Shown in pieces: positions 25,856 through 53,557 of a stretch of DNA of 64,000 nucleotides; within the stretch, counting starts at the first letter, position 1; each line of letters opens with the position of its first letter. Source of the DNA: an uncultured Tateyamaria sp. (GTDB taxonomy: Bacteria; Pseudomonadota; Alphaproteobacteria; Rhodobacterales; Rhodobacteraceae); NCBI RefSeq assembly GCF_947496075.1, contig NZ_CANMBJ010000003.1:87834-151833 (forward strand). Reading direction: 5' to 3'. Below the pieces are notes generated by a model that saw nothing but the letters and a program-made list of their open reading frames with translations, made no database searches and was not told where the DNA came from. A program made the position numbers and the translations under genes.

Positions 25856-28462
25856 TCAATCACCTTCTGTTTTTGGTGTGCGGTGTATGCGCACTGCTTT
25901 GGCGAGTTCCGGCACGATGATGAGCGGGGCGGCAAGCAGGCAGATGATTGACCAGTGTTCAATCCCGAGCGGGACGGTGCGCAGAAGCGTTTGTAGGGGT
26001 GGCCAGTAGACTGCCGCCAGTTGCAAGCTGACGCTGATGGTGAATGCGATCACAAGGATCGGGTTTGAGAACCATCCAATTGTGGTCGTGGGCCGCGTGA
26101 GAGAGCGGAATGCGAACACACTGACCTTTTCGAAGATCAGCATGGCGGTAAAGGCCGTGGTACGGGCGATATCCACGCCGTAGGGCAAAAACGTGTAAAA
26201 AATCCAGAGGCTTGCAGTGGCCGTGTAGAGTCCGAAGGTGGCAATCAGTGCAAAGCCTGCCCGCCCGAGAATGGCCTCGCTTGGTTCGCGTGGCGGGCGC
26301 TGCATCTGGTCGGGTTCTTCCTTCTCCAACCCCAGGGCCACGGCGGTGATACTGTCGGTGATCAGGTTCATCCACAGGATCTGTGTAGCCAGGAAGATCA
26401 GCGGCCCGCCGATAATGAGGTTGACCATGATCGCCAGCACCTCGCCCGCGTTGGAGGACATGAGGTAACGCACGAACTTGCGCACGTTTTCGAACTGCCT
26501 TCGGCCTTCGGCGACGGCATTCACAATGGTGGAAAAGTCATCATCCAGCAGGATCAGATCGGCTGCACTCTTGGACACCTCGGTGCCCCGAATGCCCATG
26601 GCGACGCCGATATTTGCTTGCTTCAGGGCGGGCGCATCATTTACTCCGTCGCCCGTCATGGCAACAATCTGATCTTTGCTTTGAAGGGCTTTGACGATGC
26701 GCAGTTTGTGTTCGGGCCGGGTGCGGGCAAAAAGCACATCGTCTTGGAGCCTTTCAGCCAGTGCACCGTCATCCATGGTGTCAATTTCATGCCCTTCAAT
26801 CAGATAAGGTGTTCCCAATCCGATCTTGTCCGCCACGGCAGCAGCAGTGATTGCGCCGTCGCCGGTGATCATGATCACCCGGATGCCTGCGTTACCGGCA
26901 AGGCGCAGGGCTGACTCGATCTCTGCCCGTGGTGGGTCAATCATACCGACGAGGCCCAAAAAGGTGAGGTTTGTCTCTGATGTGTCTTTGCCGTCAGTGT
27001 CGCGTATGGCCAGTGCGAGGACGCGCAGGCCCTGGGCGGCCATGGATTGATAGGCGTCCGCAATGCGTTGTCGTGTGGATGGGTCAAGCGGGTGCTGTGT
27101 GCCGTGGGTCAGGATGCGATCGCATCGCTCAACCACGACTTCGGGCGCGCCCTTGACGAAGAGGCGGGTCCGGCCTGCATCGTTTGCCAGCACGCTCATG
27201 CGTTTGCGTTCGCTGCTGAAGGGCGTTTCCGAGATTAGGTCGGCTTGCGACACCGGGGGCGCCCACCCCTTGTGGGCGAGGGTGACAAGCGCCCCTTCGG
27301 TGGGTGCGCCGATCATCGTCCAATGCTCCCCCTCGCGGTGGAGAGACGCGTGGGTGCAGGTCAGCGCCGTTTTCAGGATTAGGGCGAGCGTCAGGTCGTC
27401 GCTCGCTCGGACGGATTTTCCACCGGTTTCGATGTGACCCTTGGGATCATAACCTTCACCGGTGACATCATACGTGCGGTCGTGGGTCCAGATCTGCGTC
27501 GCTGTCATCTGGTTCTCGGTCAGTGTGCCGGTCTTGTCGGTGCAGATCACCGAGGCCGCGCCGAGCGTTTCAACCGCCTGCAACCGGCGCGCCAATGCGT
27601 TCTTGCGCGCCATGGCGGACGCGCCGATAGCGAGTGTGATCGTGACGACGGCGGGCAGACCTTCGGGCACCATCGCGACGGCGAGCGACAGACCTGTCAT
27701 GAACATCTCAAATGGGCCACGGCCGACCATCAGGCCGATGACCACAACCAGAGCGGCGATGGAAAGAGCCGCAATGCCGATCTGTTGGGCCAGTTTGCCG
27801 AGCCGGATTTGCAGATTTGTCCGCTTTTGCCCGACGCTTCCCGTCAGTTGGGCGATCTGGCCGAAGCGGGTGTGCTGGCCGATCTGAGTAACGATCCCGC
27901 GGGCGCGCCCCTTGACCAAGGCGGTGCCAGCAAAAAGAAAGGTTTCATCGTCTGTGCCCCGCTCCGACTTGTCCACTGGCACCGACTCCCCCGTCAGTAC
28001 GCTTTCGTCCACGCGGATTTCCATGGCTGACACGATGCGCAGATCGGCGGGTACGGCCGCCCCGGCGGCCACAACGACAAGGTCACCGGGCACAAGTTCG
28101 CGGGCGGGGATGTCAATCTCTTGCCCGTCGCGGACCACGATGGCGTGGGGCGATAGCATGGAACGCAGTGCATCTAGCGCAGTTTCGGCGCGCCATTCCT
28201 GCACAAAGCCCAGAACCGCGTTCAGGAGCAGCACGAGGGCGATGGCCAGCGCGTCAACCCGTTCGCCCAACGCCAATGCGATCAGGGCAGCGACCACAAG
28301 GATCACAACCAGCATGCCTCCGAATTGCCGCAAGAAGACGATCAGCGGTCCGGGTGGTTTCTGGCGTGGCAATTCATTCCAGCCGTACCGGGCGCGCAAA
28401 TCGTCGATCTGCTGGGCTGACAGTCCCGTGGCAGGGGCTGTGGACACGTCGGAAGCGCGCAT
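25856..28462 (-). CDS. P-type cation-transporting ATPase, P2 (Ca2+/SERCA-like) type
   Basis: Contains DKTGTLT, TGDGVNDAPALKQANIGVAMG and MVPEGLPAV motifs. 868 aa with N- and C-terminal TM blocks. Confidence 0.9.
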   Translation of the reverse strand: MRASDVSTAPATGLSAQQIDDLRARYGWNELPRQKPPGPLIVFLRQFGGMLVVILVVAALIALALGERVDALAIALVLLLNAVLGFVQEWRAETALDALRSMLSPHAIVVRDGQEIDIPARELVPGDLVVVAAGAAVPADLRIVSAMEIRVDESVLTGESVPVDKSERGTDDETFLFAGTALVKGRARGIVTQIGQHTRFGQIAQLTGSVGQKRTNLQIRLGKLAQQIGIAALSIAALVVVIGLMVGRGPFEMFMTGLSLAVAMVPEGLPAVVTITLAIGASAMARKNALARRLQAVETLGAASVICTDKTGTLTENQMTATQIWTHDRTYDVTGEGYDPKGHIETGGKSVRASDDLTLALILKTALTCTHASLHREGEHWTMIGAPTEGALVTLAHKGWAPPVSQADLISETPFSSERKRMSVLANDAGRTRLFVKGAPEVVVERCDRILTHGTQHPLDPSTRQRIADAYQSMAAQGLRVLALAIRDTDGKDTSETNLTFLGLVGMIDPPRAEIESALRLAGNAGIRVIMITGDGAITAAAVADKIGLGTPYLIEGHEIDTMDDGALAERLQDDVLFARTRPEHKLRIVKALQSKDQIVAMTGDGVNDAPALKQANIGVAMGIRGTEVSKSAADLILLDDDFSTIVNAVAEGRRQFENVRKFVRYLMSSNAGEVLAIMVNLIIGGPLIFLATQILWMNLITDSITAVALGLEKEEPDQMQRPPREPSEAILGRAGFALIATFGLYTATASLWIFYTFLPYGVDIARTTAFTAMLIFEKVSVFAFRSLTRPTTTIGWFSNPILVIAFTISVSLQLAAVYWPPLQTLLRTVPLGIEHWSIICLLAAPLIIVPELAKAVRIHRTPKTEGD

Positions 28463-28517
28463 CTTGGTTTCTCCGGGCCGGACCCTTTCGCGCTAGCAGT
28501 GCACGGGTCCTGCGGCA

Positions 28518-28531
28518 TTGAGAAAGATCAA
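28518..28531. promoter_or_regulatory. FixK/FNR-type box TTGAGAAAGATCAA
   Basis: TTGA-N6-TCAA palindrome in the divergent gap between the ATPase start (28462) and the phasin start (28591). Confidence 0.6.
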
Positions 28532-28590
28532 TCGGCAGCGACCCGGGGCACGATAAGCTCGCCTTCATCAGTCATTGTTGGGAGATTGAA

Positions 28591-28965
28591 ATGCCACCGA
28601 AACAGCCCGCAGGCGCAGCGCAGACCGACACATCGACGACTGCCGATGTGACCAAGATGGCCGGGGACGTCGCAGCCATGCAGGATCAGGCCGTGAAATC
28701 CATGTCGCAGATGGGGCTGGCTTGGGTCGAAGGGATGAGTGATCTGGGCAGCGAAGTGCTGTCCTTTGTTGCAGACCGGATCAAGGAAGACGTCAAGACG
28801 CAGCACAAGATGCTGCATTGCAAGGACGTCTCGGAGCTTCAGAAGATCCAGGCCGAGTTCATGCAGACGGCTATTGATCAATACACTGCCGAGACTGGAA
28901 AGCTCGTGCAGATGAGCCAGGATCTGTATGCGCCGCCAAGTGCGGACGAAACCAAAAAGAGCTGA
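28591..28965 (+). CDS. phasin-family protein
   Basis: LGSEVLSFVADRIKEDVKTQHKMLHCKDVSELQKIQAEFMQTAIDQYTAETGKLVQM fits the phasin_2 pattern. It is convergent with a PHA synthase gene. Confidence 0.65.
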   Translation: MPPKQPAGAAQTDTSTTADVTKMAGDVAAMQDQAVKSMSQMGLAWVEGMSDLGSEVLSFVADRIKEDVKTQHKMLHCKDVSELQKIQAEFMQTAIDQYTAETGKLVQMSQDLYAPPSADETKKS

Positions 28966-28982: not shown

Positions 28983-30659
28983 TCAGCCCAAGACGTAACG
29001 CCCTGGCGCTGGTCCTTTGGTCCAGCGCTTTTTTGCAGGCGTAAACTGTTTCGAGCCGCTGTGGTCGGCCAACCATTTGACCCATGCAGGCCACCATGAA
29101 CCGTCTTCGATGGGGGCTTGGTCCATCCAGGCTTCGGCCGCGGTGTGCGGGTCGCCTTCGGTCTTTTTGCGCAACCGGTAGTGGCGGTTTCGGTGGCCCG
29201 GTTCGGAGAGCACGCCGCTGTTGTGCCCGCCAGCAGTCAGGCAAAAGGTCACATCCGTGTCGGTCAACATTTGCAGCCTGAACACAGACCGCCAAGGCGA
29301 CACGTGGTCAGTTTCGGTGGCAAGGCAAAAGATGGGCACCCGCAAGTCGGTGAGCGCGACCGTCTTCCCCCCCACTTTGAACCGCCCCTTGGCCAGCTGG
29401 TTTTCCAGAAACATCTGTCGCAGGTATTCCGAATGCATCCGCGCAGGCATCCGCGTTGCATCGGCATTCCAGGCCATGAGGTCGTTCATGGGGGTGCGTT
29501 CGCCCAGTAGGTAATGGCGCACGATCCTGCTCCAAATCAGATCGGTGGAGCGGAGCATGCGGAAGGCTCCTGCCATCTGGTCCGCGCGCAGGTACCCTTG
29601 GGTCGCCATGATGTCTTCGAGGAAAGCGACCTGGTTTTCATTGATAAATAGTGACAACTCACCTGGTTCGGAGAAATCCACCTGTGCGGCCAACAGCGAC
29701 AAGCTATGCAAGCGCGTGTCGTGGTCCCGCGCCATTGCGGCGGCGCCCGCAGCCAGCAGCGTGCCGCCAAGGCAGTAGCCGACCGCGTGCAACGCGCCGT
29801 CGTTTTGGGGCACTATGTGGTTGATGGCGGCAAACATTCCAAGATTCAGATAGTCCTCCAAAGACAGGTCAGCGTCGCCCTTGTCCGGGTTTTTCCAAGA
29901 GATGATATACACTTCGAACCCCTGATCGCGGAGATAGGCGACCAGTGAGTTCCGCGGCGACAGATCCAGAATGTAGTATTTCATGATCCAGGCGGGCACG
30001 ATCAGGATCGGTTCAGCGTGGACCTTCTTCGTCGTGGGTCGGTAGCGGATCAGTTCAATCAGCTGGTTCTGGTAGATAACGTCGCCCGGTGTGATGGCGA
30101 TGGTTTCGCCCACGCGGTAGTCTGGATGCAACTTTGGGCTCTGGCTGATCAATTGGTTGAAATCCTCGATCCAGTGCTGCCAGCCCTGTGTGAAGTTCTG
30201 CCCATGTTCCGCCAGCGTCTTGTCCAGCACATCCGGGTTGGTGAGTGCGAAATTGGCGGGTGACATGGTGTCGATGATTTGCCGCGCAGCGAAGGAGACA
30301 ATTCGTTGATGGGCAGGATCGACGCCGACGATGGGCGCCGTTGCCTCTTGCCACCACGTCTCTTGCAGGCTGAACCAGTGCCGCAGTTGGCTGTAGGGTG
30401 GCACGTTCCACGCGAGGCTTTGGAACCTTGGGTCGTCTGTTTCGGGGGCCTTGCCGGTCAGAAACGTGGTCCATGCCTCTGCCCCCTTGGCCCATGCGCT
30501 GAAGGCCAGTTGGATTTGCCGTTCGGGGGAGCCCACGACATGCAGCGCCCAGTCGAGCCACGCGGTGCTGAGCGCTGTGGGCGACAGCCCGCCCGTGGCC
30601 TTGCCCATGGCGCTGTGCAAAATGCGGTCGAGGTTGCGGTCGGTGCTGTCCTTGGGCAC
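28983..30659 (-). CDS. phaC: poly(3-hydroxyalkanoate) synthase (PhaC, alpha/beta hydrolase)
   Basis: The lipase-like box with catalytic Cys is GYCLGGTLLA. Also ILIVPAWIMKYYILDL, and the WNADATRMP and HVSPW motifs typical of class I/III PhaC. Confidence 0.85.
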   Translation of the reverse strand: MPKDSTDRNLDRILHSAMGKATGGLSPTALSTAWLDWALHVVGSPERQIQLAFSAWAKGAEAWTTFLTGKAPETDDPRFQSLAWNVPPYSQLRHWFSLQETWWQEATAPIVGVDPAHQRIVSFAARQIIDTMSPANFALTNPDVLDKTLAEHGQNFTQGWQHWIEDFNQLISQSPKLHPDYRVGETIAITPGDVIYQNQLIELIRYRPTTKKVHAEPILIVPAWIMKYYILDLSPRNSLVAYLRDQGFEVYIISWKNPDKGDADLSLEDYLNLGMFAAINHIVPQNDGALHAVGYCLGGTLLAAGAAAMARDHDTRLHSLSLLAAQVDFSEPGELSLFINENQVAFLEDIMATQGYLRADQMAGAFRMLRSTDLIWSRIVRHYLLGERTPMNDLMAWNADATRMPARMHSEYLRQMFLENQLAKGRFKVGGKTVALTDLRVPIFCLATETDHVSPWRSVFRLQMLTDTDVTFCLTAGGHNSGVLSEPGHRNRHYRLRKKTEGDPHTAAEAWMDQAPIEDGSWWPAWVKWLADHSGSKQFTPAKKRWTKGPAPGRYVLG

Positions 30660-30670
30660 TTGGAGTCCTT

Positions 30671-31876
30671 TCAGAAGGTGGTGCGTTCTTCGATCAAGGC
30701 ACCATCGGTGAGGTCGTCGCGGGGGTGCTCCACGATGCGGTCACCGGGCTCCAGCCCGCTTTCCACCACGGCAAGGCGTCCATTGCGCGCGCCAAGGTCG
30801 ACCGGCACGCGCGTGACCCTGTCGCCGTCCGCACGGAATGCGGCCCAATAGTCATCGGTGCGGAACGCAGCACTTAGCGGGATCAGAAGTGCGTCTTCTT
30901 CCTCGTAGGTGACGATGCGCAGGTAGACGGCGAATTCATGGCCCAGATCAGGGCGTTGTTCGGGAGGTGTAGTGATGTCGAATACGACGTCGACGCGCTG
31001 TTCCTCAATCCCGAGGGCGGAGACTTTCATGCGCGCCGCAGGCTCTACATAAGCCAATTTGGCTTGAAGCGGGGGGCCGCCCCAGCGTTCAACGGTTGCG
31101 TGGGCGTTTGGTGGCAGGCTGACCGCGTCGGATGTGAGCAGGTCCGCTACGAGTTCGATCTGGCCGGGGTCGCCGATTGTCAGCAAGCGTTCGCCCGATG
31201 TAACTGGCCGAGCGCTGACTTCGTCGATGTCCAGAACAACACCGTCGGTTGGAGCAAGAAGTGACATGCAGCACGTATCGTTTTCGCCGTTGCCCGAGGT
31301 TTCGACCAAGGCCGCCTTTGTCCGTCGCAACCCGCCTTCGGCCTGCGCGATACGGGCGTTCGCGGCCTCAAGGGCGGCATTTGTTATGGCAAAGAGCTGT
31401 TGCGCTTCCTCCAGCCGGGTGATGCTGGCCACGCCCCGTTCAACCAGTTCCGAGGTGCGATCGAAATGTGACTTCGCGAAGATGTAATCCTCCCGCGCAC
31501 GGGCCAGGTCCGTTTCGGCCACGTGCAGGGCGGCTTCGGCCTCGGTGACGGCGGCTTCGGATTGCATACGGGTGCGGGCATCGAGCAACCCCGGAGAGAT
31601 AGGTTCGACCAATGCGACGACCGTTTCCCCCCCTGTCACCGGATCGCCGACGCGCACGGGCGAGCGTTGGGCGACACCGGCGATGGGGGCCGACACCTCG
31701 AACACCTCCACCACGCGTGTCGTGCCGTCGGCATCGACCGTGATCTCGAAATGGCCTCTATCCACGGTGTGCAGATCCACCGGCACGGGTTCGGGGCGGA
31801 AGGTCACATAAAGCAAGCCCCCGGCGATGCCGACCCCGATCAGGCCAAGGACGATGTTGCGGCTGGTGTGGGCCAT
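30671..31876 (-). CDS. HlyD-family periplasmic adaptor (MacA-like)
   Basis: N-terminal TM, a coiled-coil segment (AEAALHVAETDLARAREDY...LEAANARIAQAEGGL) and a beta-barrel C-terminus. Adjacent to FtsX/ABC genes. Confidence 0.8.
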   Translation of the reverse strand: MAHTSRNIVLGLIGVGIAGGLLYVTFRPEPVPVDLHTVDRGHFEITVDADGTTRVVEVFEVSAPIAGVAQRSPVRVGDPVTGGETVVALVEPISPGLLDARTRMQSEAAVTEAEAALHVAETDLARAREDYIFAKSHFDRTSELVERGVASITRLEEAQQLFAITNAALEAANARIAQAEGGLRRTKAALVETSGNGENDTCCMSLLAPTDGVVLDIDEVSARPVTSGERLLTIGDPGQIELVADLLTSDAVSLPPNAHATVERWGGPPLQAKLAYVEPAARMKVSALGIEEQRVDVVFDITTPPEQRPDLGHEFAVYLRIVTYEEEDALLIPLSAAFRTDDYWAAFRADGDRVTRVPVDLGARNGRLAVVESGLEPGDRIVEHPRDDLTDGALIEERTTF

Positions 31877-31880
31877 GGTG

Positions 31881-34966: not shown

Positions 34967-35469
34967 ACAACACCTTGTGATGCCGACGTCATCATGGCGT
35001 GGGCAAATGCGTCTAGGCGTTTGTCCGTTTCCGGAGTGTCTTCGATCTTGTTCTGAATGTTTAAGCTTGCTGCCAACCGGCGGCCCAACACCGTTTCGCA
35101 AGTTGCCACGCATTTGAGCGGTTCACCGGCCCCGCCAGACGTGGTGAGCAGGCCAACGGGTGTCGCGGTTGACGCCAGCGCATTTATGACACTGCGCGCC
35201 GGGGAGGCGGGCTGATCCGCCCAGATGGGGCAAGCCACCACGATCCAGGGTCTGTTTGCTGTAACCACATTGCCGCCGGTTAGTGGCGGCAAATGTGATC
35301 GGCCCACATCCCAGATTGCGCGCAAGATCCACAGCAGAGGTACCTTATAGCGGTCGGTTTCAATTGGTATGACCTCAGCCACCGTCCGCTGCGCAAGCGT
35401 ATCCGCGGCACGGCGGGTATGTCCGGATTTCGAAAAGCACAAAATGGCTGGTGATGTGTTTGCAGACAT
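34963..35469 (-). CDS. flavodoxin-like fold protein (tentative)
   Basis: [26 protein letters not shown] resembles a flavodoxin N-terminal loop. First gene of the exporter-phaC operon. Start taken at ATG 35469. Confidence 0.35.
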
Positions 35470-40434: not shown

Positions 40435-41961
40435 TTGGACCACAACCGCGACGCAGCCCTTCTTACCGCTCTGATGGACGCCGCCGCCGATGCAATCATC
40501 GTCGCTGACCGACACGGCGTAATGCAGCGCATCAACCCCGCAGCAGAGCAGCTGTTCGGGTTCAGCACAAGCGTCTTTGTCGGGCAAAGCGTGAACGTGC
40601 TGATGCCCAAAGCGCTGGCGGATGTGCATGACGGGTTTATGGCACATCACCTCGAAACGGGTGAGAAGCGGATTATCGGTATCGGACGCGATGTGGAAGG
40701 GAAGCGGCAGGACGGAACGGTTTTTCCCTTACATCTGTCGGTTGGGAGCGCCGAAGTTGGCGGTGACACAGTGTTCATTGCCATTCTGCACGACCTGACG
40801 GAACGTCACGCAGCGCAAGAGGCTTTGGCCCGCTCCCAACGATTGGATGCGGTCGGTCAACTCACGGGCGGCGTTGCACATGACTTCAACAATCTACTGA
40901 CAGTGATCATCGGCAATCTTGAGCTGTTGCAGATGCGCGGCGCAGACGAACGTCAGACTGGCCTGATCGACGATGCGCTAACATCTGCAGAACTGGGCGC
41001 AGACCTGACCCGGCGCCTTTTGGTCTTCGCGCGCAAGGGCGACCTGAAACCTGTCGAAGTCGATTTGCGTGCACAATGCCGCGATGCACTTGCGATCCTG
41101 AGACGCACGATCGGGGAGCGGTACCAGATCCGAACCGACTTTGCGAAGACAGTCAGCAAGGTGATGATCGACCCGGTGCAACTACAATCCGCGCTGATCA
41201 ACCTCGCTCTCAATGCCCGCGATGCAATGCCCGAGGGTGGAGAGTTCCTGATCTCTGTCGCCGATATCACCATCGACGATCACTACATGGCGCAAGAGAC
41301 TGATATTCAGCCGGGGCATTACGTCAGGCTGTTTGTCAGCGACGACGGCGAGGGAATGCCGCTTGAAGCCCAACGCCGCGCGTTTGAGCCGTTCTTCACG
41401 ACGAAGGCCGAAAGCGGTGGCACGGGTCTCGGCCTCGCTATGGTTTATGGCTTTGTGCGGCAGTCCGGCGGTCACATCACGCTGTACAGCGAATTGGGGC
41501 ATGGAACGAGCTTTGGCCTCTACTTTCCTGCGCTGCGGCCCGCCAGCACACCCCAAACGAGTGGCGAGGACAGGATGGGCAATGACCTGCCTCGCGGCAC
41601 AGGCCAGGTTGTTCTGGTTGTCGAGGACAACCCCCATGTGCGCAAACTGTCCGTCGCGCGGATACGCGATTTGGGTTACCAAACACTGGAAGCGACAAGC
41701 GGAGATGACGCCTATGCCTTGTTGGGCACCGGGTTACGGGTAGATGTGCTGTTCTCTGATCTGGTGATGCCGGGATCGCTCAACGGCTATGACCTGGCCG
41801 CCAAGGTCCGCGCGGAGCATCCGCACGTCAAAATACTCCTGACGTCGGGCTATGCTAGCGATGTGGTCACCGGCAAAATGGGAGCAACGGGCGAATACAG
41901 AATCCTGCACAAGCCGTATCGCCATTCGGATCTGGCCGAACGGCTTCAGGCGCTTTTGTGA
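40435..41961 (+). CDS. FixL-type heme-PAS oxygen-sensor hybrid histidine kinase (PAS-HisKA-HATPase-REC)
   Basis: [35 protein letters not shown]...VHDGF...[25 protein letters not shown]...ILHDLTERH aligns motif-for-motif with the Bradyrhizobium FixL heme domain as recalled (DAMIVIDGHG..AAERLFGWS..GQNVNILMP..RHDSY..IIGIGRIVTGKRRDGTTFPMHLSIG..VRDLTEH). The proximal His codon is at 40627-40629. H-box HDFNNLL. C-terminal receiver (VLVVEDN...LFSDLVMPG). The start is TTG 40435 or ATG 40474. Confidence 0.85.
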
Positions 41962-42716
41962 AGCGTTTCAAACGGTTTGCAATCCACGTCGCAAGCAAAT
42001 GTATATCCTACGCCACGCACCGTCTTGATAAGGCGTGGGTCGGACGGGTTGCGCTCGATCTTCTTGCGTAGCCGCGCCACCTGGTTGTCGATGGTTCGGT
42101 CAAGGGGTGACCATTCCACGCCTCCAGTCAGATCCATGAGTTGGTCTCGCGACAATACCCGTTTGGGCCGTTCCAGAAAGACCTTCAGCAAGTTGAAATC
42201 ACCACTGGTCAGTGCACAGTCGGAACCGGTGCGGTCCATGACCTGCATCCGATCTGGGACCGCGATTATGCCGTCAAAGTAATAGGCCGCACTGTCGGGC
42301 ACAGTGGCAGGGGTAGGCGCGCGCTTTTGGACGTCGGCTTCGGCAAACTGGTGACGCCGCAGAACGGCACGAATGCGGGCGATGACCTCGCGCAGATGAA
42401 AAGGTTTCGTGATGTAATCATCCGCCCCGATTTCCAGCCCAACAACGCGGTCGATTACGTCATCCTTGCCAGTGACCATTACGATGGGCACAGTCGATAC
42501 CTTGCGGATCTCGCGCGCCAGATCGAGCCCATTGTCCTGACCCAAATGAATGTCGAGGGTGATAAGGCAGGGCGCGCTGTTTTTAACATGCTCAAGCACT
42601 TCTGCGCCATTTGCAGCCTCCTGAACTGCAAAACCATCATCTTCCAGCACATTTCGCAGCAAGGCGCGCACCTTGAGGTCGTCTTCCACGACCAGAATTG
42701 TCGGCTGTTTGCCCAT
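41946..42716 (-). CDS. OmpR-family response regulator (REC plus winged helix)
   Basis: ILVVEDD...ITLDIHLG...ADDYITKPF and LTSGDFNLLKVFLERPKRVLSRDQL...DRTIDNQVARLRKKIE...IKTVRGVGY. Start taken at MGKQPT (42716). The 3' end overlaps the kinase 3' end by 16 nt. Confidence 0.9.
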   Translation of the reverse strand: MGKQPTILVVEDDLKVRALLRNVLEDDGFAVQEAANGAEVLEHVKNSAPCLITLDIHLGQDNGLDLAREIRKVSTVPIVMVTGKDDVIDRVVGLEIGADDYITKPFHLREVIARIRAVLRRHQFAEADVQKRAPTPATVPDSAAYYFDGIIAVPDRMQVMDRTGSDCALTSGDFNLLKVFLERPKRVLSRDQLMDLTGGVEWSPLDRTIDNQVARLRKKIERNPSDPRLIKTVRGVGYTFACDVDCKPFETLHKSA

Positions 42717-42878
42717 GATCCCCTCACCGGGTTTATGCAAATGCACCACGTGCCCCCGGAAACGGTGCGCATCGGCTAGGGGAGCGTTACAATTTGATAC
42801 AAAACTGTCCTGCTCAACCATACGTAAGATTACAGTCTGCGTCCAACAAGGTCCTGGGACAGCCTAGGGGGACCACAG

Positions 42879-43550
42879 ATGTATATCACTTTGTCAGCTG
42901 AAGAACGTCCAATGCCTGCCGTTTTAGGAGGGGATGAACGTGCGCGCAAATCGCTGACCACACGACTGCCACAGGGCAAATACCTTTACCGCGAAGGGGA
43001 TGTGGTCGAGCGCATTTATCAGGTGATGACTGGGGTTGTGCGCCTAACACGGATGCTGGAAAACGGTCGGCGACAGGTGATCGCGTTCGGCTACCCCGGC
43101 GATATCATTGGTTTTCCCGCCAATGGGTGCCACCACGCCGATTGCGACGCGTTGGTCGATACCACCTTGCGCGCGTATCGCCGTGCGGCCCTTGATCACG
43201 GTGATGGCGACCCGGAATTGCATACGGCACTGTTGCAGGCTGCGTTGGGCGAAATCAGCGCCATGCAGGATCACGTCATGATGCTTGGGCTGAAATCCGC
43301 TGCCGAGAAGGTTGCATCGTTCCTCGATGTAATCAGCCGTCGGTACGGCGAAGATCTGGGGGCCTATCGTCAGATCGAGTTGCCCATGAGCCGCAGCGAC
43401 ATTGCCGACTTTCTCGGCCTCACAACAGAGACGGTCAGCCGCGCGGTGACCGCCCTGCGCAAGGCCGGTGTGATCTCACTTGATGGGGCGCAAATGATCA
43501 TCGTGCTAAAACCCGACACCCTTGCTGAGTTGTCGCAGGGCGAGGACTAG
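42879..43550 (+). CDS. CRP/FNR-family transcriptional regulator (FixK-like; no N-terminal Cys cluster seen)
   Basis: cNMP-binding-like barrel (YLYREGDVVERIYQVMTGVVRL) and a C-terminal HTH (MSRSDIADFLGLTTETVSRAVTALRKAG). Confidence 0.85.
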   Translation: MYITLSAEERPMPAVLGGDERARKSLTTRLPQGKYLYREGDVVERIYQVMTGVVRLTRMLENGRRQVIAFGYPGDIIGFPANGCHHADCDALVDTTLRAYRRAALDHGDGDPELHTALLQAALGEISAMQDHVMMLGLKSAAEKVASFLDVISRRYGEDLGAYRQIELPMSRSDIADFLGLTTETVSRAVTALRKAGVISLDGAQMIIVLKPDTLAELSQGED

Positions 43551-43969
43551 GGTGCTGCCCAGTACACGCGCATCTCCTCGGGAAGACATGCGCGTACATC
43601 CTCGACCTCACCGTGGCTGATCCTGTTGTTCAGCAGATCAAAGACGTATCTGGCATCCTCCGCTCCGCGAAACTCGGATGTATCCGTCATCGCTTCGGCA
43701 ATGGTGGGTCCAAAACGCAGATCAGTGTTCGGCGTGTGCTTGGGCTGCCACCCTTCAAACATGATGCCGCGCACCAGCAACGGCAACTGCGCAGAAAACT
43801 GTGCCATCTCGTTCTCGGGCAGCCGGTCCCGCAAACACTGCAACGTGACACGCAGTAATCGCAGCGCGCTTCGTTTCGACGTATAGCCGACCCGCTCTGC
43901 CAGTTCGTTGATCCACTCGTGCGTCAGGTGCACGGTATGGTCGATCACTTCGAGACCCTGATTGGACAT
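43547..43969 (-). CDS. DUF2267-domain protein
   Basis: HTVHLTHEWINELAERVGYTSKRSALRLLRVTLQCLRDRLPENEMAQFSAQLPLLVRGIMFEGWQP fits the DUF2267 pattern as recalled. Confidence 0.6.
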   Translation of the reverse strand: MSNQGLEVIDHTVHLTHEWINELAERVGYTSKRSALRLLRVTLQCLRDRLPENEMAQFSAQLPLLVRGIMFEGWQPKHTPNTDLRFGPTIAEAMTDTSEFRGAEDARYVFDLLNNRISHGEVEDVRACLPEEMRVYWAAP

Positions 43970-43984
43970 AAAATATCCTCCTTT

Positions 43985-45178
43985 TCAGGTTTTGGGATTG
44001 TCTTGGTCGACCGGCTGCATATCCAAGTCGAACGCAGGATCAATATCAGGCACAAGGGCCAGGAGGGCGGCATGGGTCATGGCGCCAACACCCAGCAGAA
44101 CCAGTGTGTAGTTCGCCACCCATCCGACGAAGGGGATGAAGTTCAACAAAGCGACGGCGATGATGGCGGCAGCAAAAACCACCAAACGTGTGACGTTGTG
44201 CGGATCGACCTCACCCCCCAGGCCAATCCAAACACGCATCGCCACCGCATAGGCACCAAGCGCATAGGCCAACGTCCAGACCAACACGATAGACAAGATC
44301 GCGACAGGCACAAACGGGATCCCCACGATTGTCAGGCCAGTCACCGGCACCGCGCCAAACAGGATCGAAAGCCCAACCACCCCTTGAAGCAAAGTGCGCC
44401 CTGGCGCCGCTCCAATGGATTTGCGCAGCCACGATACATGCCGAGGTGCGAACCCCAGCGCGATGGCACCAAGCAGGACGAAGAACAGCAAGGTCACCAG
44501 AAAACCAAAGAAAACAGAGGCGAAGGTCGGGAAGATCGGCATCTCCCGTATCCCGTCCCATTCACGCAAAAGGGCGCCGCCAGTCAGTGGTTCAAACGTG
44601 ACGCGCGCGGCTGGTGCCACACGCTCCGGTACGTCCATTCTGGTGTCGGTTGTGTATGTCAGGCGGCCCGCGACCACCGCCTTGGGCCCGAAGCGGAGTG
44701 TTTTGGCCAAAACCAGCGCGTCACCCGTCACTGGCGCATTCAGCAGCACATCACGCCCGGAAACGGACAGCGCACCGTCAATCGGCCCGTCCACAATGAC
44801 CGTCGCCCCTGCAAGCCGCGCATTGCCCCCAACACGTGATGTTGTATCCGTTCGGACGGTGAAACCTGCGGCAGTCAGATCTTGCCCCACCGTGCCCTTC
44901 AGCGTCACGGTCGCCCCAGCGGCATAGGCGTCTTCGCCCACATCAGCCTCAATCAGGACGTCAAAGCCTGCAACATGAAAGTCTTCATTGGCCTGGCCCA
45001 GCACCGTCGTAGACCGCCCCGCAACAAAGGCATCACCGGATACCTCCAGCGTTTGGGTAATGGTCTCGCCCGATACAAACGTGTCGCCCCCATGTTCGGT
45101 CACCACCGTCTCGGCGCTACCCGTCGAAACGCACAGAGCAAAACCGATCAGCACAGCTGGTAAATAAGTCTTTCGCAT
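43985..45178 (-). CDS. membrane protein: signal peptide, beta-helix/bactofilin-like repeat ectodomain, polytopic C-terminal half
   Basis: MRKTYLPAVLIGFALCVSTGSA signal peptide. Repeated xVxGDAxVAG / DLTAAGFTV / ARLAGATVIVDG units, then about 5 TM helices. Start taken at ATG 45178. Confidence 0.5.
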   Translation of the reverse strand: MRKTYLPAVLIGFALCVSTGSAETVVTEHGGDTFVSGETITQTLEVSGDAFVAGRSTTVLGQANEDFHVAGFDVLIEADVGEDAYAAGATVTLKGTVGQDLTAAGFTVRTDTTSRVGGNARLAGATVIVDGPIDGALSVSGRDVLLNAPVTGDALVLAKTLRFGPKAVVAGRLTYTTDTRMDVPERVAPAARVTFEPLTGGALLREWDGIREMPIFPTFASVFFGFLVTLLFFVLLGAIALGFAPRHVSWLRKSIGAAPGRTLLQGVVGLSILFGAVPVTGLTIVGIPFVPVAILSIVLVWTLAYALGAYAVAMRVWIGLGGEVDPHNVTRLVVFAAAIIAVALLNFIPFVGWVANYTLVLLGVGAMTHAALLALVPDIDPAFDLDMQPVDQDNPKT

Positions 45179-45309: not shown

Positions 45310-45795
45310 ATGGTGTCCAAGCCGAACCTTCCCACCCAAACGGGCAGCTTCTACCCGCCTTTTTTTCAATCTTTACAAAAAGAAATGGCACAGATGCTTG
45401 ACCATCTGCGTGGCACAGCGACCCCGCAACCGACCGAGGGTTTCTTTTCCAGCGGTAGCATGCTCGTGCCCGCTATCGATGTGGCCGAAACCGACACGGG
45501 GCTGGAAATCAGCGCCGACATTCCCGGCGTGAGCGAGGAGAACCTGGACGTCACAGTTCAGGGCGATACGCTTGTCATCAAGGGCGAGAAAAGCACCAAC
45601 AAGGAGGAAAAGGAAAAAGACTTTCACCTTGTCGAGCGTCGCCATGGCAGCTTTCGCCGGCACATTCCGCTTGGGTTTGTGCCGGACAAGGGCGCGGTCG
45701 CGGCTGACTTCTCCAACGGTGTTCTCACATTGAAAATCGACCGTCCCGAAAACGCGACGACCGGCGTTCAAAAGGTCGACATCAACACATCATAA
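45310..45795 (+). CDS. Hsp20/alpha-crystallin small heat-shock protein
   Basis: PAIDVAETDTGLEISADIPGVSEENLDVTVQGDTLVIKGEK...ERRHGSFRRHIPL...ADFSNGVLTLKI. aggag RBS before ATG 45310. Confidence 0.9.
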   Translation: MVSKPNLPTQTGSFYPPFFQSLQKEMAQMLDHLRGTATPQPTEGFFSSGSMLVPAIDVAETDTGLEISADIPGVSEENLDVTVQGDTLVIKGEKSTNKEEKEKDFHLVERRHGSFRRHIPLGFVPDKGAVAADFSNGVLTLKIDRPENATTGVQKVDINTS

Positions 45796-45800
45796 AGCAC

Positions 45801-45829
45801 TCGGCCCGGCAGCACATGGGCCGGGCCGA
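45801..45829 (+). other. GC-rich stem-loop between hsp20 and usp (9-bp perfect stem, no U-tract)
   Basis: TCGGCCCGG-(11 nt)-CCGGGCCGA. Confidence 0.4.
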
Positions 45830-45853
45830 AACCACCAGTCCGGAGGGGATTTT

Positions 45854-46693
45854 ATGGGACCGAAGACAATTCTGGTGTGCCTGACCACCAAAGAACATGC
45901 TGCCACCTTGCTGAAAGCGGCCGTGCCGCTGGCCCGCCGCACTGGTGCGCATCTGATCGGCTTACACACATTGGAAGCGCTTGAAGTATATCCCGGTATT
46001 TCCATTCACATACCGGATCAGGTCTTTGCGAATTTTAGCGCCAGCCAGAAGCAGACTGCGGAGGAGATCAAAGAGATTTTCAACGCCCACACCCGGTCCG
46101 AAGATTTTGTGAGCGAGTACCGCTTGGTGCAGGCACAATCCAACACAGCCTCGGAACGCATGATCGAAAGTGCGCGGGCCGCTGATCTGGTGATCATGGC
46201 CCACGAAGATAAAGACTTGGACAGATACGACCAGCGCCGTGCGCAAGAGGCCGTGATCCGCCAAAGCGGAAGGCCGGTGATCGTGGTGCCACTGGGTTAT
46301 GACGGCCCCGAGATTGGTCACAAGGCCCTTCTTGGATGGAGCGAAACGAGAGAAGCGGGGCGTGCGGCCCATGACATGCTGGATATTATGGCACCCGGCT
46401 CCGAGATCGTCGCGTTGCGCGTCAAGGACCGTGCACAAGACGAGTTGCACGATTCCGATATGCTTGATGTGACCAGCGCGCTGGCTCGCCACGGACACAA
46501 GGTTGATCTACGCCATCTTGACCAAGCCGGTCAGGCTATCGCGGATGTGCTGCTTCAATGCGCGTTCGAAGAGGGTGCGGATATTGTTGTGACAGGCGCG
46601 TTTGGGCACTCCAACGCCTATGATTTTGTGGTCGGTGCAACCAGCAAGGCGTTGTTACGAAATGCGAAACTGCCAGTTTTGTTGTCGAAGTGA
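45854..46693 (+). CDS. tandem-domain universal stress protein (UspA family)
   Basis: Two USP halves: KTILVCLT...ADLVIMAHED... and ...ADIVVTGAFGHSNAYDFVVGATSKALLRNAKLPVLLS (ATP-binding G-2x-G-9x-G(S/T) motif). Confidence 0.85.
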   Translation: MGPKTILVCLTTKEHAATLLKAAVPLARRTGAHLIGLHTLEALEVYPGISIHIPDQVFANFSASQKQTAEEIKEIFNAHTRSEDFVSEYRLVQAQSNTASERMIESARAADLVIMAHEDKDLDRYDQRRAQEAVIRQSGRPVIVVPLGYDGPEIGHKALLGWSETREAGRAAHDMLDIMAPGSEIVALRVKDRAQDELHDSDMLDVTSALARHGHKVDLRHLDQAGQAIADVLLQCAFEEGADIVVTGAFGHSNAYDFVVGATSKALLRNAKLPVLLSK

Positions 46694-47150
46694 ACAACGG
46701 CAAAGCATCCAAAAAAACCAACAAAAGATGCCATTTGGTCTTATTGCGCATGGTTTGCACTGCACTTGAAATGAAACTGGCTGACTAAGGCTCGTCTGCC
46801 GGAAGGAGGCAGGTCTCATGCCCTCACTTTGATAAGCGGCAGCGATACGGCACTCGCCAAACCCGGCCCGGAACGCGAACAACAGCGATTAGATCAGTGC
46901 ATCTAAATCCAGAAAGCACAGCTTTATCGCACTCCTCGGTAATCTGGATTGCACGCACCAGCATGGAGTTATTTCTAAGCCCCACGAGTCCGTTAAGTCA
47001 TCAATTTTTTAGAACGGGCTACATTGCAATTATGACCACAAGGAGGGTGCGAACAGATGCTTTATGAGTAAGAGCGGCGTCTTGAGAGGGCCGGTTATCC
47101 CGCTTCGAGATCTTGAGCAACGCAGAATTTTGCACAATTCACGAATGGCC

Positions 47151-47227
47151 GCTTCCGGTCCTAAGACGACATCCAAGGTTGGTTAGCGATGCTGCGTTTG
47201 CAGCACGGAAAGCTGCCATTAGCTGCG
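47151..47227 (+). repeat. copy A of a diverged direct repeat flanking the DUF2189 gene
   Basis: Shares GCTTCCGG ... AAGCTGCC(A/C)TTAGCTGCG anchors with 48245..48328. The interior is only weakly similar by eye. Confidence 0.35.
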
Positions 47228-47401
47228 AACGCAAATTTCGGAACTGATCGAACTCACAAAAGCGGGAGTTAGCTGCCTCTCCCCTACTTGCCCCGATGCA
47301 CCCCCTCATGCAACCTTGAGGACGGATAAGGATTGTCAATCTCGCCGCTAGGTCCACGGTCAAAGGATCTGCGCGCCGACGTGTTTGGAGAGGAGTTCTT
47401 C

Positions 47402-48241
47402 ATGACATCCAAAACCACAGGTCCGACACCACAGGACAAGCTGACGTCGCAGCAGCCGAGCATGCCCAAGGTCAACAAGGTGTTGGCGGAGGATATCAGC
47501 GCGTCGCTGAAGGCCGGGTTTTCCGACTTTCTGGCGCGCCCCGTCATGAGCGGCTTCTTCGGCCTCTTCTATGCGCTGTTCGGGATGCTTCTCGTCTGGT
47601 GCCTAGTCTGGCTTGGCAAAATCTGGATGATCATCCCCGCGTTGATCGCCTTTCCGCTGGTCGCACCGTTTGCTTGCGCCGGTCTTTACGAAATGTCGCG
47701 CCGGTTGCAGACGGCAGAGCCTTTCGGCTGGTTCAACATCCTCACTGTCATGGCCGATCAACGCAAGCGCGAGATGAGCTGGATGGCCTTTGTCACCCTG
47801 TTCGTATTGTGGGTCTGGTTCTACCAGTTCCGGACCGTTCTAGTGATCGTGCTGCAGGACGCGTCTTTCTCGGATCTGGACGGCTTCTTCAACACCGTCT
47901 TGTTTACACCGGAGGGCTGGACCTTCCTTGCAATCGGCACATGCGTCGGCGCATGTATGGCAGCTGCCTTGTTCACAGTGACGGTCGTGGCCATGCCTTT
48001 GCTGCTCGACCGGGACATTGATTTCGTGACCGCCATGATCACGTCCATTCGCGTCGTTAAAAAAAATCCGGTGGTCATGCTCACTTGGGCGGCGATTATC
48101 ATGGTCACTACGCTGTTGTCGCTGGTTCCGGCGTTTCTGGGCCTGATCTTCACCCTGCCCATCCTTGGCCACACCACATGGCATCTCTATCAGCGGGCCG
48201 TGTCCCCAGCGGAGGGGCGATCCTCGGTACAATTGGGTTGA
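47402..48241 (+). CDS. DUF2189-like integral membrane protein
   Basis: LAEDISASLKAGFSDFLARPVMSGFFGLFYALFGMLLVW... with about 5 TM segments, as recalled for DUF2189. Start taken at ATG 47402. Confidence 0.55.
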   Translation: MTSKTTGPTPQDKLTSQQPSMPKVNKVLAEDISASLKAGFSDFLARPVMSGFFGLFYALFGMLLVWCLVWLGKIWMIIPALIAFPLVAPFACAGLYEMSRRLQTAEPFGWFNILTVMADQRKREMSWMAFVTLFVLWVWFYQFRTVLVIVLQDASFSDLDGFFNTVLFTPEGWTFLAIGTCVGACMAAALFTVTVVAMPLLLDRDIDFVTAMITSIRVVKKNPVVMLTWAAIIMVTTLLSLVPAFLGLIFTLPILGHTTWHLYQRAVSPAEGRSSVQLG

Positions 48242-53551: not shown

Positions 53552-53557
53552 AGCGTT

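Follow-up and report, generated by a model that had tools for sequence, protein, structure and literature searches.

A putative hFixL-FxkR-FixK oxygen-signalling cascade and its candidate local regulon in a marine Roseobacter-group bacterium

The 64-kb stretch of DNA that we analysed (the window), from a marine Roseobacter-group bacterium closest to Tateyamaria, contains, at 25856-46693, a cluster of genes within which a FixL-like kinase, an OmpR-type response regulator and a FixK-type regulator are encoded. Its features, with the matches by which they were assigned, are:

25856-28462, minus strand: P2A-type (Ca2+-type) cation ATPase (Pfam)
28591-28965, plus strand: phasin (Pfam Phasin_2)
28983-35469, minus strand: five-gene operon of orf168, ABC ATPase (34247-34966), MacB-type permease, HlyD adaptor and class I PhaC (Pfam)
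35617-36627, plus strand: AdhP-type zinc alcohol dehydrogenase (NCBIfam AdhP equivalog, 359.7 bits, above the 344-bit cut-off)
36943-37335, plus strand: small periplasmic c-type cytochrome (Pfam Cytochrom_C)
37544-37942, minus strand: unk141, a lineage-restricted orphan protein of 132-141 aa
38031-39068, minus strand: CaCA-family cation/Ca2+ exchanger (Pfam Na_Ca_ex, two stretches)
39199-40371, plus strand: site-2 protease (M50) with a tandem CBS pair (Pfam)
40435-41961, plus strand: hybrid FixL (hFixL), soluble, with haem-PAS, HisKA, HATPase and C-terminal receiver (Pfam domains)
41946-42716, minus strand: FxkR ortholog, OmpR-type response regulator (Pfam Response_reg and Trans_reg_C)
42786-42801, plus strand: K-box GTTACAATTTGATACA, predicted FxkR site 5' of fixK
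42879-43550, plus strand: FixK-type CRP/FNR regulator (Pfam cNMP_binding and HTH_Crp_2)
43547-45178, minus strand: mem397 and DUF2267 operon (Pfam DUF2267)
45310-46693, plus strand: Hsp20 small heat-shock protein and tandem-domain universal stress protein, USP (Pfam HSP20; Usp, two stretches)

The cation ATPase matches NCBIfam PMR1/SERCA-type models at 690 and 638 bits, both under the equivalog cut-off, and the match of the CaCA exchanger to the calcium/sodium antiporter model is likewise under its cut-off; PhaC scores 491 bits against the class I model. Within the operon that ends in PhaC, orf168 and the ABC ATPase gene meet in an ATGA overlap, and the remaining junctions are overlaps or gaps of 4-11 nt. 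The orf168 product, whose flavodoxin-like identity is questionable, has a weak match only, to a WrbA-like structure (E = 0.006). The M50-CBS protein carries a HELAH motif and a PLDGG stretch (the LDG motif), and its PDB matches are the M. jannaschii site-2 protease (E = 2.7e-22) and SpoIVFB. By hydropathy analysis mem397 has a signal peptide, a repeat-rich periplasmic domain and 4-5 membrane helices; it matched no family and no PDB structure. For unk141 there was no family match even at E = 10, a homolog search returned five homologs (the sole named one from an uncultured Tateyamaria), and the AlphaFold2 model, at pLDDT 37, was unusable.

The PAS domain of hFixL matches the haem domain of B. 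japonicum FixL (E = 7e-31), and both the proximal His and the IIGIGR stretch are kept; the full-length protein shares 44-45% identity with S. meliloti hFixL and with the hFixL9 protein of R. johnstonii 3841. A preliminary description of this DNA had named a FixL-type sensor here; that homology is borne out, but the protein is a hybrid kinase with a receiver domain. FxkR shows 47-48.5% identity to three rhizobial regulators (strain 3841 FxkR9, the FxkR of S. meliloti and the p42f regulator of R. etli), and these rank at the top of more than 5000 OmpR-family plasmid matches, behind three closer non-rhizobial ones. In all relatives, as here, the 3' ends of fxkR and hFixL overlap, and fxkR and fixK are transcribed divergently. 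The K-box is the sole match in the window with at most one mismatch to the rhizobial consensus GTTACA-N4-GTTACA (PMC7888657, PMC4999443). From its end to the fixK ATG there are 77 nt, and the box is found at the same place in 9/9 of the related genomes that make up our conservation set (L001-L009, from Tateyamaria, Jannaschia and one other alphaproteobacterium), and also on a Sulfitobacter plasmid. The fxkR gene and the K-box had been overlooked in the preliminary description; its FixK-like CRP/FNR gene is upheld by the invariant ETVSR recognition helix (E--SR), the Pfam domains and the NCBIfam matches, of which FixK is best and FnrL next, both under the family cut-off. Sequence comparison found no N-terminal cysteines or Fe-S cysteine cluster in this FixK. 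An HHxDC motif is common to Roseobacter-clade FixK proteins and missing from rhizobial FixK.

The candidate binding sites for FixK are copies of the box TTGA-N6-TCAA, listed here with their distances to start codons and the related genomes in which they are kept:

28518-28531, unstranded: FixK/FNR box 1, TTGAGAAAGATCAA, exact match, common to the divergent ATPase (55 nt) and phasin (59 nt) promoters; TAG/TAA -10-like element at +22 on either side
35520-35533, unstranded: FixK/FNR box 2, TTGAGCAATATCAA, exact match, common to the orf168-ABC-MacB-HlyD-PhaC operon and adhP; kept in L001, L003 and L005-L007, standing out in the alignment as an identical block within an otherwise variable spacer
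36872-36885, plus strand: FixK/FNR box 3, TTGAGATAAATCAA, exact match, 5' of the cytochrome c gene (57 nt to ATG 36943); kept in L001, L003 and L005-L007
38003-38016, minus strand: FixK/FNR box 4, TTGAGAATTGTCAA, exact match, 5' of orphan gene unk141 (60 nt to ATG 37942, where the homologs in databases start); kept in L001 and L003-L007
39136-39149, unstranded: FixK/FNR box 5, TTGAGCAAAATCAA, exact match, common to the divergent CaCA (67 nt) and M50-CBS (49 nt) promoters; kept in L001, L002 and L004-L007
45232-45245, unstranded: FixK/FNR box 6, TTGACAACGATCAA, exact match, common to the mem397-DUF2267 operon (53 nt) and Hsp20-USP (64 nt); kept in L001-L004, L008 and L009
40368-40381, plus strand: imperfect box, TTGACTCAAATCAT, 53 nt 5' of the hFixL start; partially conserved in L001 and L004
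55404-55417, plus strand: seventh exact box, TTGATATTGCTCAA, between soxW and soxX

All six boxes of the cluster had been reported in the preliminary description, and we recovered each at the position and with the sequence given there, together with the four divergent gaps; its box-to-start distances of 34-84 nt came close, refined start codons giving 49-83 nt from the box edge (33 nt with the longer unk141 ORF). Against seven exact boxes in the window, 0.67 +/- 0.88 were expected from 100 dinucleotide shuffles, none of which reached seven. All seven fall in the non-coding DNA (~6 kb, ~9.5% of the window) and a scan of the ~58 kb of coding DNA found none. Variants with one mismatch show no enrichment: the window has 22, and 3/22 are non-coding. 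With six of the seven inside the 25.9-46.7 kb cluster, box density there is 2.9 per 10 kb versus 0.39 per 10 kb in a background of 304 kb of sox loci from related marine alphaproteobacteria (~7-fold; Poisson P(>=6) ~2e-4). The seventh box lies beyond the range of the preliminary description. It is missing at 46/50 related soxX loci, the closest loci among them, and stands within a stretch conserved for another reason, with a conserved TAGTGT -10 at +17, not +22; a function for it is doubtful.

Boxes at orthologous promoters are kept across L001-L009, even where gene order differs. Thus in Jannaschia (L008) and in L009, which are rearranged, the phasin and mem397 genes still bear boxes, as do the ADH, USP and PhaC genes of L008. 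The M50-CBS/hFixL gap of L002 has a perfect box, and in L003, without M50-CBS, a perfect box is found farther upstream of hFixL; the imperfect box at this position in our sequence is a possible FixK-to-hFixL feedback site. The preliminary description had extended the island to 48241. The DUF2189 gene at its end (47333-48241) carries no box, and relatives show no synteny for it, from which we conclude that the conserved cluster ends at the USP gene (46693).

Over 42 promoter directions, a T-A-A/G information peak stands 22-24 nt 3' of the box, a spacing that fits FNR class II promoters and agrees with the anaerobox positions of -32 to -34 mapped in R. johnstonii 3841 (PMC7888657). Consensus sigma-70 promoters are rarer than chance (1 versus 6.1 expected), as would be expected of activator-dependent promoters.

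We propose, with a probability of about 0.72, that the cluster encodes an hFixL-FxkR-FixK oxygen-signalling cascade together with the regulon which this cascade locally controls. When O2 is low, soluble hybrid hFixL with its haem in the deoxy state would autophosphorylate and pass its phosphoryl group to the OmpR-type FxkR, which in turn would bind the K-box and switch on fixK. The FixK dimer would then bind the six boxes, their centres ~41.5 bp upstream of transcription starts (class II), and at four of them would activate promoters both ways; having no Fe-S cysteines, FixK would be unable to sense O2 itself. The predicted output is ten transcription units, with ~17 genes: the Ca-type P-ATPase, the CaCA exchanger, phasin, the MacB-type exporter operon ending in PhaC, AdhP, the c-type cytochrome, unk141, the M50-CBS protease, mem397 with DUF2267, and Hsp20 with the tandem USP. 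The M50-CBS transcript probably reads through into hFixL, which would mean positive feedback. The single low-oxygen regulon with a FixK-like regulator that the preliminary description had suggested thus gains support in cis, from conserved boxes with class II spacing, and in trans, from a cysteine-less FixK and a FixL-like PAS domain.

Some features count against such a cascade. The second K-box repeat, GATACA, departs from the rhizobial consensus, FixK is 33-36% identical to rhizobial FixK proteins, and we saw no Hpt gene in the island. To our knowledge, even the rhizobial work offers no account of how phosphate would reach FxkR from a hybrid kinase, with its built-in receiver, when there is no Hpt protein.

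With a Roseobacter-group alphaproteobacterium as host, the nearest system described so far is found in rhizobia: the hFixL-FxkR-FixK cascade, known from Rhizobium etli CFN42, R. johnstonii (leguminosarum) 3841 and Sinorhizobium meliloti. The two have in common a hybrid haem-PAS kinase with a C-terminal receiver, an OmpR-type FxkR, a K-box direct repeat 5' of a cysteine-less fixK, fxkR and fixK divergent around the K-box region, and a like spacing of FixK anaeroboxes, ~33-35 bp before the (here predicted) transcription starts. Around the rhizobial genes boxes also crowd, before adhP, USP, CBS, P-type ATPase and APH/ATP-binding kinase genes (the last also box-linked in our Jannaschia relative); there are 16 boxes in 37 kb of the pRL9 region and 10 in 31 kb of the S. 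meliloti plasmid region, preceding adhP, USP, CBS, BON and groL genes. In contrast to the rhizobial cascade, the sensor here has one PAS domain and 508 aa (hFixL9 has 641 aa), the window is without fixNOQP, fixGHIS or hemN targets or a nif link, and the regulon adds PhaC with an exporter, the CaCA exchanger, the M50-CBS protease and the orphan protein. The FixLJ-FixK2 system of Bradyrhizobium diazoefficiens and FixLJ-FixK of Caulobacter similarly place a haem-PAS FixL above a cysteine-less FixK that binds TTGA-N6-TCAA, and a zinc alcohol dehydrogenase is among the predicted members of the FixK regulon (PMC2908626). There, however, the response regulator FixJ, a LuxR/NarL-type protein that recognises another site, takes the place of the OmpR-type protein and K-box, and no FixT-like inhibitor was seen here.

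The preliminary description had also drawn parallels to the lxa and DosR loci; the gene content does match the published lists, but as analogy, not as membership. The lxa locus of Burkholderia cenocepacia J2315 is a contiguous co-regulated hypoxia locus that supports anoxic survival, with a 4-bp inverted repeat parted by 6 bp at many intergenic points; its genes include those for USPs, an alpha-crystallin and a cation ATPase, others for alcohol turnover and storage polymers, and regulators of its own (PMC3721108). This locus, of a betaproteobacterium, has 50 genes and 17 sites for its motif; BCAM0049, BCAM0287 and BCAM1483 are named as candidate regulators, and no hFixL-FxkR-K-box wiring is described for it. 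As the order of the genes bears no relation to that seen here, the two are alike in content only. The DosR (DevR) regulon of Mycobacterium tuberculosis covers the same categories (alpha-crystallin HspX, several USPs, the metalloprotease Rip3/Rv2625c (PMC5309233) and a cation ATPase (PMC3721108)) and is also driven by haem sensor kinases, but with a NarL/LuxR-type regulator, GAF-haem kinases, an unrelated DNA motif and a different phylum the likeness is by analogy only. The Anr regulon of Pseudomonas aeruginosa and the FnrL regulon of Rhodobacter (Cereibacter) sphaeroides use the same DNA box, and USP genes under Anr/FNR control are needed for anaerobic survival (PMC2908626, PMC3721108). Anr and FnrL sense O2 directly via a [4Fe-4S] cluster, whereas FixK here, without the cysteines for such a cluster, appears to be placed under a two-component cascade.

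It is unlikely, if a serious alternative, that the boxes are low-oxygen or NO-responsive sites read mainly by an FnrL (Fe-S) or Dnr/NnrR-type paralog encoded elsewhere, the local FixK being minor or redundant. Alphaproteobacterial FNR, FixK and DNR proteins recognise virtually identical boxes and have overlapping regulons (PMC2908626), which counts against a dedicated cascade; R. johnstonii FixK and FnrN both act at the same anaeroboxes (PMC7888657), and the Rhodobacterales genomes sampled in a comparative study had FnrN-type regulators only (PMC4999443). Yet the hFixL-fxkR-fixK cassette lies within the box-bearing gene set in 9/9 relatives, a Sulfitobacter plasmid has the same cassette adjoining box-bearing cco and USP genes, and the conserved K-box would couple fixK transcription to the O2 sensor; were FixK without nearby targets, the co-inheritance of cassette and boxes would stay unexplained. 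The regulon is likely shared between the local FixK and a paralog.

FixL-type haem domains bind NO and CO as well, and the cascade might answer such a signal, or redox state, with general stress or energy limitation as the regulon's province rather than hypoxia. We hold this to be improbable. The HHxDC motif could supply a second input and the regulon within the window has no classic respiratory targets (cco, hemN), but the haem pocket residues match O2-sensing FixL, the Sulfitobacter cassette adjoins box-bearing ccoNOQP-GHIS, and the homologous rhizobial cascade is active at ~1% O2 (PMC7888657). There is next to no likelihood that the palindromes arose by chance and that the genes around them are an ordinary assortment with nothing to link them: intergenic A+T richness favours TTGA/TCAA and the soxX box (1/7) resembles a lineage-specific accident, but shuffled and real related DNA fall far short of the observed count and distances to -10-like elements and start codons are fixed. 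Conservation at orthologous promoters across genera, while flanks vary, effectively refutes a chance origin.

Returning to the hFixL-FxkR-FixK cascade, its physiological role may be survival and redox or ion homeostasis under oxygen limitation; a search for expression data found sequence related to the cluster in DNA metagenomes only. The cascade's origin has been placed in the ancestor of the Rhizobiaceae, with FnrN only reported from Rhodobacterales (PMC4999443). Judged by these homologies, the host lies beyond that proposed taxonomic range, and a known rhizobial circuit would here be met outside rhizobia, in a marine bacterium of the Roseobacter group.

The conserved boxes and the sequence-based assignment of the regulators support, and sharpen, the low-oxygen regulon that the preliminary description had proposed here, with the cluster as the predicted local regulon of an hFixL-FxkR-FixK cascade (hybrid haem-PAS kinase, OmpR-type regulator and CRP/FNR regulator): a kind of system already known, here in a new taxonomic setting. 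The range first given to it, 25856-48241, stands as far as 46693; the DUF2189 gene beyond (47333-48241) lacks both a box and synteny in relatives, so that we take 25856-46693 as the conserved cluster. The window has a G+C content of 60%, and the genes of the cluster are:

25856-28462, minus strand, Ca-type P2A ATPase
28591-28965, plus strand, phasin
35469-28983, minus strand, five-gene operon: orf168 (weakly flavodoxin-like, joined by an ATGA overlap to the next gene), ABC ATPase, MacB-type permease, HlyD adaptor, class I PhaC
35617-36627, plus strand, AdhP (exceeds the NCBIfam equivalog cut-off)
36943-37335, plus strand, cytochrome c
37544-37942, minus strand, orphan protein unk141 (longer ORF 37544-37969)
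38031-39068, minus strand, CaCA exchanger
39199-40371, plus strand, M50 site-2 protease with CBS pair (homologs in the PDB)
40435-41961, plus strand, hybrid kinase hFixL (HisKA, HATPase_c, Response_reg)
41946-42716, minus strand, OmpR-type regulator FxkR (Response_reg and Trans_reg_C)
42879-43550, plus strand, CRP/FNR regulator FixK
45178-43547, minus strand, mem397 and DUF2267
45310-46693, plus strand, Hsp20 and tandem USP

All six FNR/FixK-type palindromes (TTGA-N6-TCAA) described earlier were found with the same sequences and positions (28518, 35520, 36872, 38003, 39136 and 45232; boxes 1 to 6). Four lie in divergent gaps, as had been claimed, and the other two serve one gene each; the distance between box and start codon, first put at 34-84 nt, becomes 49-83 nt from the box edge with refined starts. 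Scanning the whole window and not intergenic DNA alone, with coding and non-coding DNA separated by a gene map of ORFs and family searches, we found seven exact boxes (the seventh at 55404) against 0.67 expected, a number reached by none of the dinucleotide-preserving shuffles. All seven fall within the non-coding c. 9.5% of the window and none in c. 58 kb of coding DNA; a similar motif density in coding sequence, which was to have counted against the regulon, was not seen. One-mismatch variants were not enriched in the window (22 in total, three of them non-coding). The cluster itself holds 2.9 boxes per 10 kb versus 0.39 in a real-DNA background of 304 kb of sox loci from related marine alphaproteobacteria (c. 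7-fold; Poisson probability of at least six boxes c. 2e-4).

Across nine related loci, boxes recur at the orthologous promoters of orf168/ADH, cytochrome c, unk141, CaCA/M50-CBS and mem397/Hsp20-USP. Gene order has changed in the loci of Jannaschia and of a more distant alphaproteobacterium, and boxes are kept there at phasin and mem397 in both, and at ADH, USP and PhaC in Jannaschia; genes for DcuC, an APH/AAA kinase, CBS, DnaJ and DUF4342 proteins are additionally box-linked in these rearranged loci. When the orf168/ADH spacers are aligned, the box stands out as identical while the DNA around it varies. With 42 box-to-gene directions taken together, information content peaks (T, A, A/G) 22-24 nt past the box edge, and a -10-like signal lies on both sides of divergent boxes. 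A class II activating box is centred near -41.5, with its edge about 33-35 bp from the transcription start; the peak, which would occupy the place of the -10 hexamer, and the 49-83 nt start-codon distances fit this FNR-type geometry, and the spacing agrees with the box positions of -32 to -34 mapped in R. johnstonii 3841 (PMC7888657). The cluster has fewer consensus sigma-70 promoters than expected (one vs 6.1), which fits activator-dependent promoters. Thus footprinting, promoter geometry and promoter type, three independent lines of sequence evidence, argue that the boxes are functional.

In the ADH promoter of six genomes, (A/G)TGGCA is invariant 19-24 nt past box 2 (window 35553-35558 and orthologs), at the place where other regulon promoters have a TA-rich -10; a sigma-54 promoter at this conserved TGGCA was rejected for want of a conserved -12 GC element. 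Five of the six boxes (28518, 35520, 36872, 38003 and 39136) are asymmetric, with TTGAG in the low-coordinate half and TTGAT/C in the other regardless of gene direction. This asymmetry is found in the Tateyamaria orthologs (L001-L007) too, and not in Jannaschia or rhizobial boxes (TTGAT/TTGAC).

The "FixL-type sensor" of the preliminary description proved to be a hybrid FixL, in which the PAS domain is followed by HisKA, HATPase and a C-terminal receiver (residues 393-504). The PAS domain matches the crystallised haem domain of Bradyrhizobium (B. japonicum) FixL at E = 7e-31, with the proximal His (HD motif) and the IIGIGR stretch aligned, and the protein is 44-45% identical over its full length to hFixL9 and S. 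meliloti hFixL; with a predicted haem PAS carrying the proximal histidine, and a kinase core and then a receiver, it can be assigned to hFixL. The gene convergent with it encodes a protein 47% identical to FxkR9 (pRL90026, strain 3841) and 48.5% identical to S. meliloti FxkR. Among more than 5000 plasmid matches, three non-rhizobial ones (two Roseobacter plasmids and Terrarubrum) are closer, followed by rhizobial and Agrobacterium regulators, and the best rhizobial plasmid-borne relatives, the R. etli p42f regulator included, show 47-49% identity. This ranking among plasmid-borne matches points to an FxkR ortholog. In the CRP/FNR regulator, the recognition helix ETVSR (E--SR type) is invariant between the window protein, its relatives and rhizobial FixK. 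Its first 80 residues contain no cysteine, no cysteine aligns throughout the clade, and an Fe-S cysteine cluster is absent; as a protein without [4Fe-4S] cysteine ligands it would fall in the FixK subgroup and not with FNR/FnrN/FnrL. Its NCBIfam scores are 147 bits for FixK vs 132 bits for FnrL, both under cut-off, and its nearest relatives are in Tateyamaria genomes and MAGs (70-78% identity), then Jannaschia helgolandensis (55%). An HHxDC motif (window 43131-43142; FixK residues 85-88) is shared by every Roseobacter-clade FixK that was compared (Tateyamaria, Jannaschia and the Sulfitobacter plasmid) and absent from rhizobial FixK; an extra metal or redox input there is possible.

In Rhizobium, FxkR activates fixK via a K-box, GTTACA-N4-GTTACA (PMC7888657, PMC4999443). 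The sole match with at most one mismatch in the 64 kb, GTTACAATTTGATACA at 42786-42801 (one mismatch), sits in the 162-nt fxkR-fixK gap and ends 77 nt ahead of the fixK start codon. The form RTTACA-N4-GATACA is kept at the same distance in 9/9 related loci, which contain almost no other match with up to two mismatches in about 237 kb, and a K-box is also found in the Sulfitobacter plasmid cassette. No FNR/FixK-type box lies upstream of fixK in the window. We propose that hFixL would signal to FxkR, which would act at the K-box on fixK, and that FixK would then act at the six boxes. An imperfect box, TTGACTCAAATCAT at 40368, lies within the 63-nt M50-CBS/hFixL gap; one Tateyamaria locus (L002) has a perfect box in this gap and another (L003), which is without M50-CBS, has a perfect box further upstream of hFixL. 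These perfect boxes suggest positive feedback on the sensor, from the imperfect box or by read-through from box 5 in the window.

As FNR, FixK and DNR of alphaproteobacteria read the same box (PMC2908626), a distant FnrL or Dnr paralog might share these sites or take them over. However, the cassette is co-inherited with the box-bearing genes and the K-box would link fixK to the sensor; on these two grounds the local FixK is the regulator that needs the fewest assumptions, and an FnrL or Dnr protein as main reader is rather unlikely. In rhizobia the arrangement is already known, and the cluster is its Roseobacter counterpart: rhizobial hFixL-FxkR-FixK regions are equally box-dense (16 in 37 kb on R. 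johnstonii pRL9, 10 in 31 kb on an S. meliloti plasmid), with all boxes intergenic and with adhP, USP, CBS, BON, groL, APH/ATP-binding kinase and acetate-CoA ligase genes behind them. In R. leguminosarum, an sHSP under an anaerobox (the same box) is induced microaerobically (PMC11784457), and a zinc ADH is a predicted member of the FixK regulon and USP genes belong to the core FNR regulon (PMC2908626).

The parallels previously drawn with the lxa locus of B. cenocepacia and with the DosR regulon hold in part. At 17 intergenic points of the lxa locus there is an inverted repeat of 4 bp with 6-bp spacing, and the locus includes genes for USPs, alpha-crystallin, a cation ATPase, alcohol turnover and storage polymers (PMC3721108); the two thus agree in type of motif and in gene categories, but not in synteny or taxon, this being a Roseobacter-group alphaproteobacterium and not Burkholderia-like. 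The DosR regulon, with HspX, USPs and the Rv2625c metalloprotease (PMC5309233), is also alike in gene categories, but in M. tuberculosis it is run by the NarL/LuxR-type DosR and the GAF-haem kinases DosS and DosT, whereas the regulators here are OmpR-type and CRP/FNR-type with a PAS-haem kinase, and the DNA motif of DosR is unrelated. Since the regulators differ from those of both systems, membership of either fails and the resemblance is one of content. No new mechanism is indicated. Some features are lineage-specific: the GATACA K-box variant, the HHxDC of FixK, the TTGAG half-site preference and an orphan target.

That orphan, unk141 (132-141 aa), has its own conserved box. Its orthologs in related Tateyamaria loci are 32-43% identical, and a homolog search found five homologs, the sole named one from uncultured Tateyamaria. 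It matched no family even at E = 10, and its AlphaFold2 model (pLDDT 37) is unusable; a by-eye likeness of its C-terminal half to the end of a cNMP-binding domain was dropped (BLASTP against FixK, E = 1.8). For mem397, the earlier label of "beta-helix membrane protein" finds no Pfam or PDB match.

The seventh box lies in a different setting, the features of which are:

53165-61986, full sox thiosulfate-oxidation cluster (soxR-like ArsR, soxS-like thioredoxin, soxV, soxW, soxXYZABCD)
54.1-55.5 kb, plus strand, soxV and soxW
55404-55417, seventh box, in the soxW-soxX gap (reverse complement identical to box 2)

Of 50 related soxX loci, four carry a box and 46, all the closest among them, do not. 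The window box arose by about six substitutions within GAATTTGTTGTTGCGTTG, a stretch whose sequence is otherwise kept in the related soxX loci examined, and adjoins a conserved AAATTCA-N6-TGAATTT palindrome upstream of soxX, probably the SoxR operator. The conserved -10 at soxX is 17 nt from the box vs 22 nt, 5 bp too close. Being unconserved, mis-spaced and within a conserved stretch of probable SoxR operator and promoter, the seventh box has a doubtful place in the regulon: it could mark sox as newly recruited, act in repression, or have arisen by chance.

The word "island", if taken to mean recent transfer, is not supported: GC content shows no shift along the window, tRNA genes are absent and the possible IS5 remnant is marginal. 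That remnant lies at the left edge of the cluster (25297-25962), where a gap of c. 560 nt overlaps an ORF with a LLADREYDADW stretch; it matches an IS5 transposase model marginally (E = 0.078) and may be a decayed IS element. The 640 nt after the USP gene (46694-47332) contain no convincing ORF, Rfam match or box, and no Rfam family matched anywhere in the window. To the left (63-25296) is a complete-looking extracellular contractile injection system (phage-tail-like) cluster, with sheath, tube, AAA ATPase, two large eCIS_core proteins (7023-8369 and 8403-10496), a VgrG-like OB spike, gp25, two Baseplate_J proteins and a 1134-aa DUF6519/beta-helix protein.

In Sulfitobacter sp. DSM 110093 (pDSM110093_a) and in Tropicibacter oceani, the fixK-fxkR(-hFixL) cassette is carried on plasmids; that of Sulfitobacter adjoins ccoNOQP-GHIS and USP genes that have boxes, and IS110 and IS5 transposases are close by. 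Among cultured relatives, Tateyamaria omphalii DP5N21-5 and Tateyamaria sp. syn59 and ANG-S1 also have the cassette. These plasmid cassettes, and the possible IS remnant flanking the window cluster, are hints of mobility. More speculatively, hFixL-FxkR-FixK and a pool of box-bearing genes for survival of oxygen limitation, which may include USP, Hsp20, AdhP, CBS and site-2 protease, Ca-type ATPase and PHA genes, could form a module exchangeable between rhizobia and marine Roseobacters, with the GATACA K-box variant, the HHxDC of FixK and unk141 as additions of this lineage, and in which box-controlled unk141 could be a new feedback component in place of FixT; we consider this combined proposal rather unlikely. 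If it were true, the cascade, which is held to have arisen in the Rhizobiaceae ancestor with Rhodobacterales having only FnrN (PMC4999443), would not have originated in Rhizobiaceae, and it would govern the persistence of algae- or coral-associated Roseobacters in transiently anoxic microniches.

Whatever its origin, hFixL-FxkR-FixK with its K-box is found in Tateyamaria, Jannaschia and Sulfitobacter plasmids, and in the literature searched is described in rhizobia only, with a Rhizobiaceae origin proposed (PMC4999443). In that literature, incompletely covered, the 12 papers mentioning hFixL all concern rhizobia, and nothing relevant was found for FixK or FixL with Roseobacter or Rhodobacteraceae. 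The cluster would provide a complete, testable oxygen-signalling circuit for the Roseobacter group, with sensor, relay, master regulator and ten promoters; to our knowledge, low-oxygen regulation in this group has been studied mainly through FnrL/Dnr-type regulators. Its content (chaperone, USP, site-2 protease, Ca2+ export, PHA synthase and ADH) would be an independent case beside DosR, lxa and Anr, and lends support to a "hypoxic persistence" toolkit that recurs among aerobic bacteria. Public runs with related sequence, found by run searches and one read mapping, are all DNA metagenomes (contigs of related strains) labelled algae, coral and viral, with no RNA run among them, and these labels suggest that the circuit may matter for life in the phycosphere.
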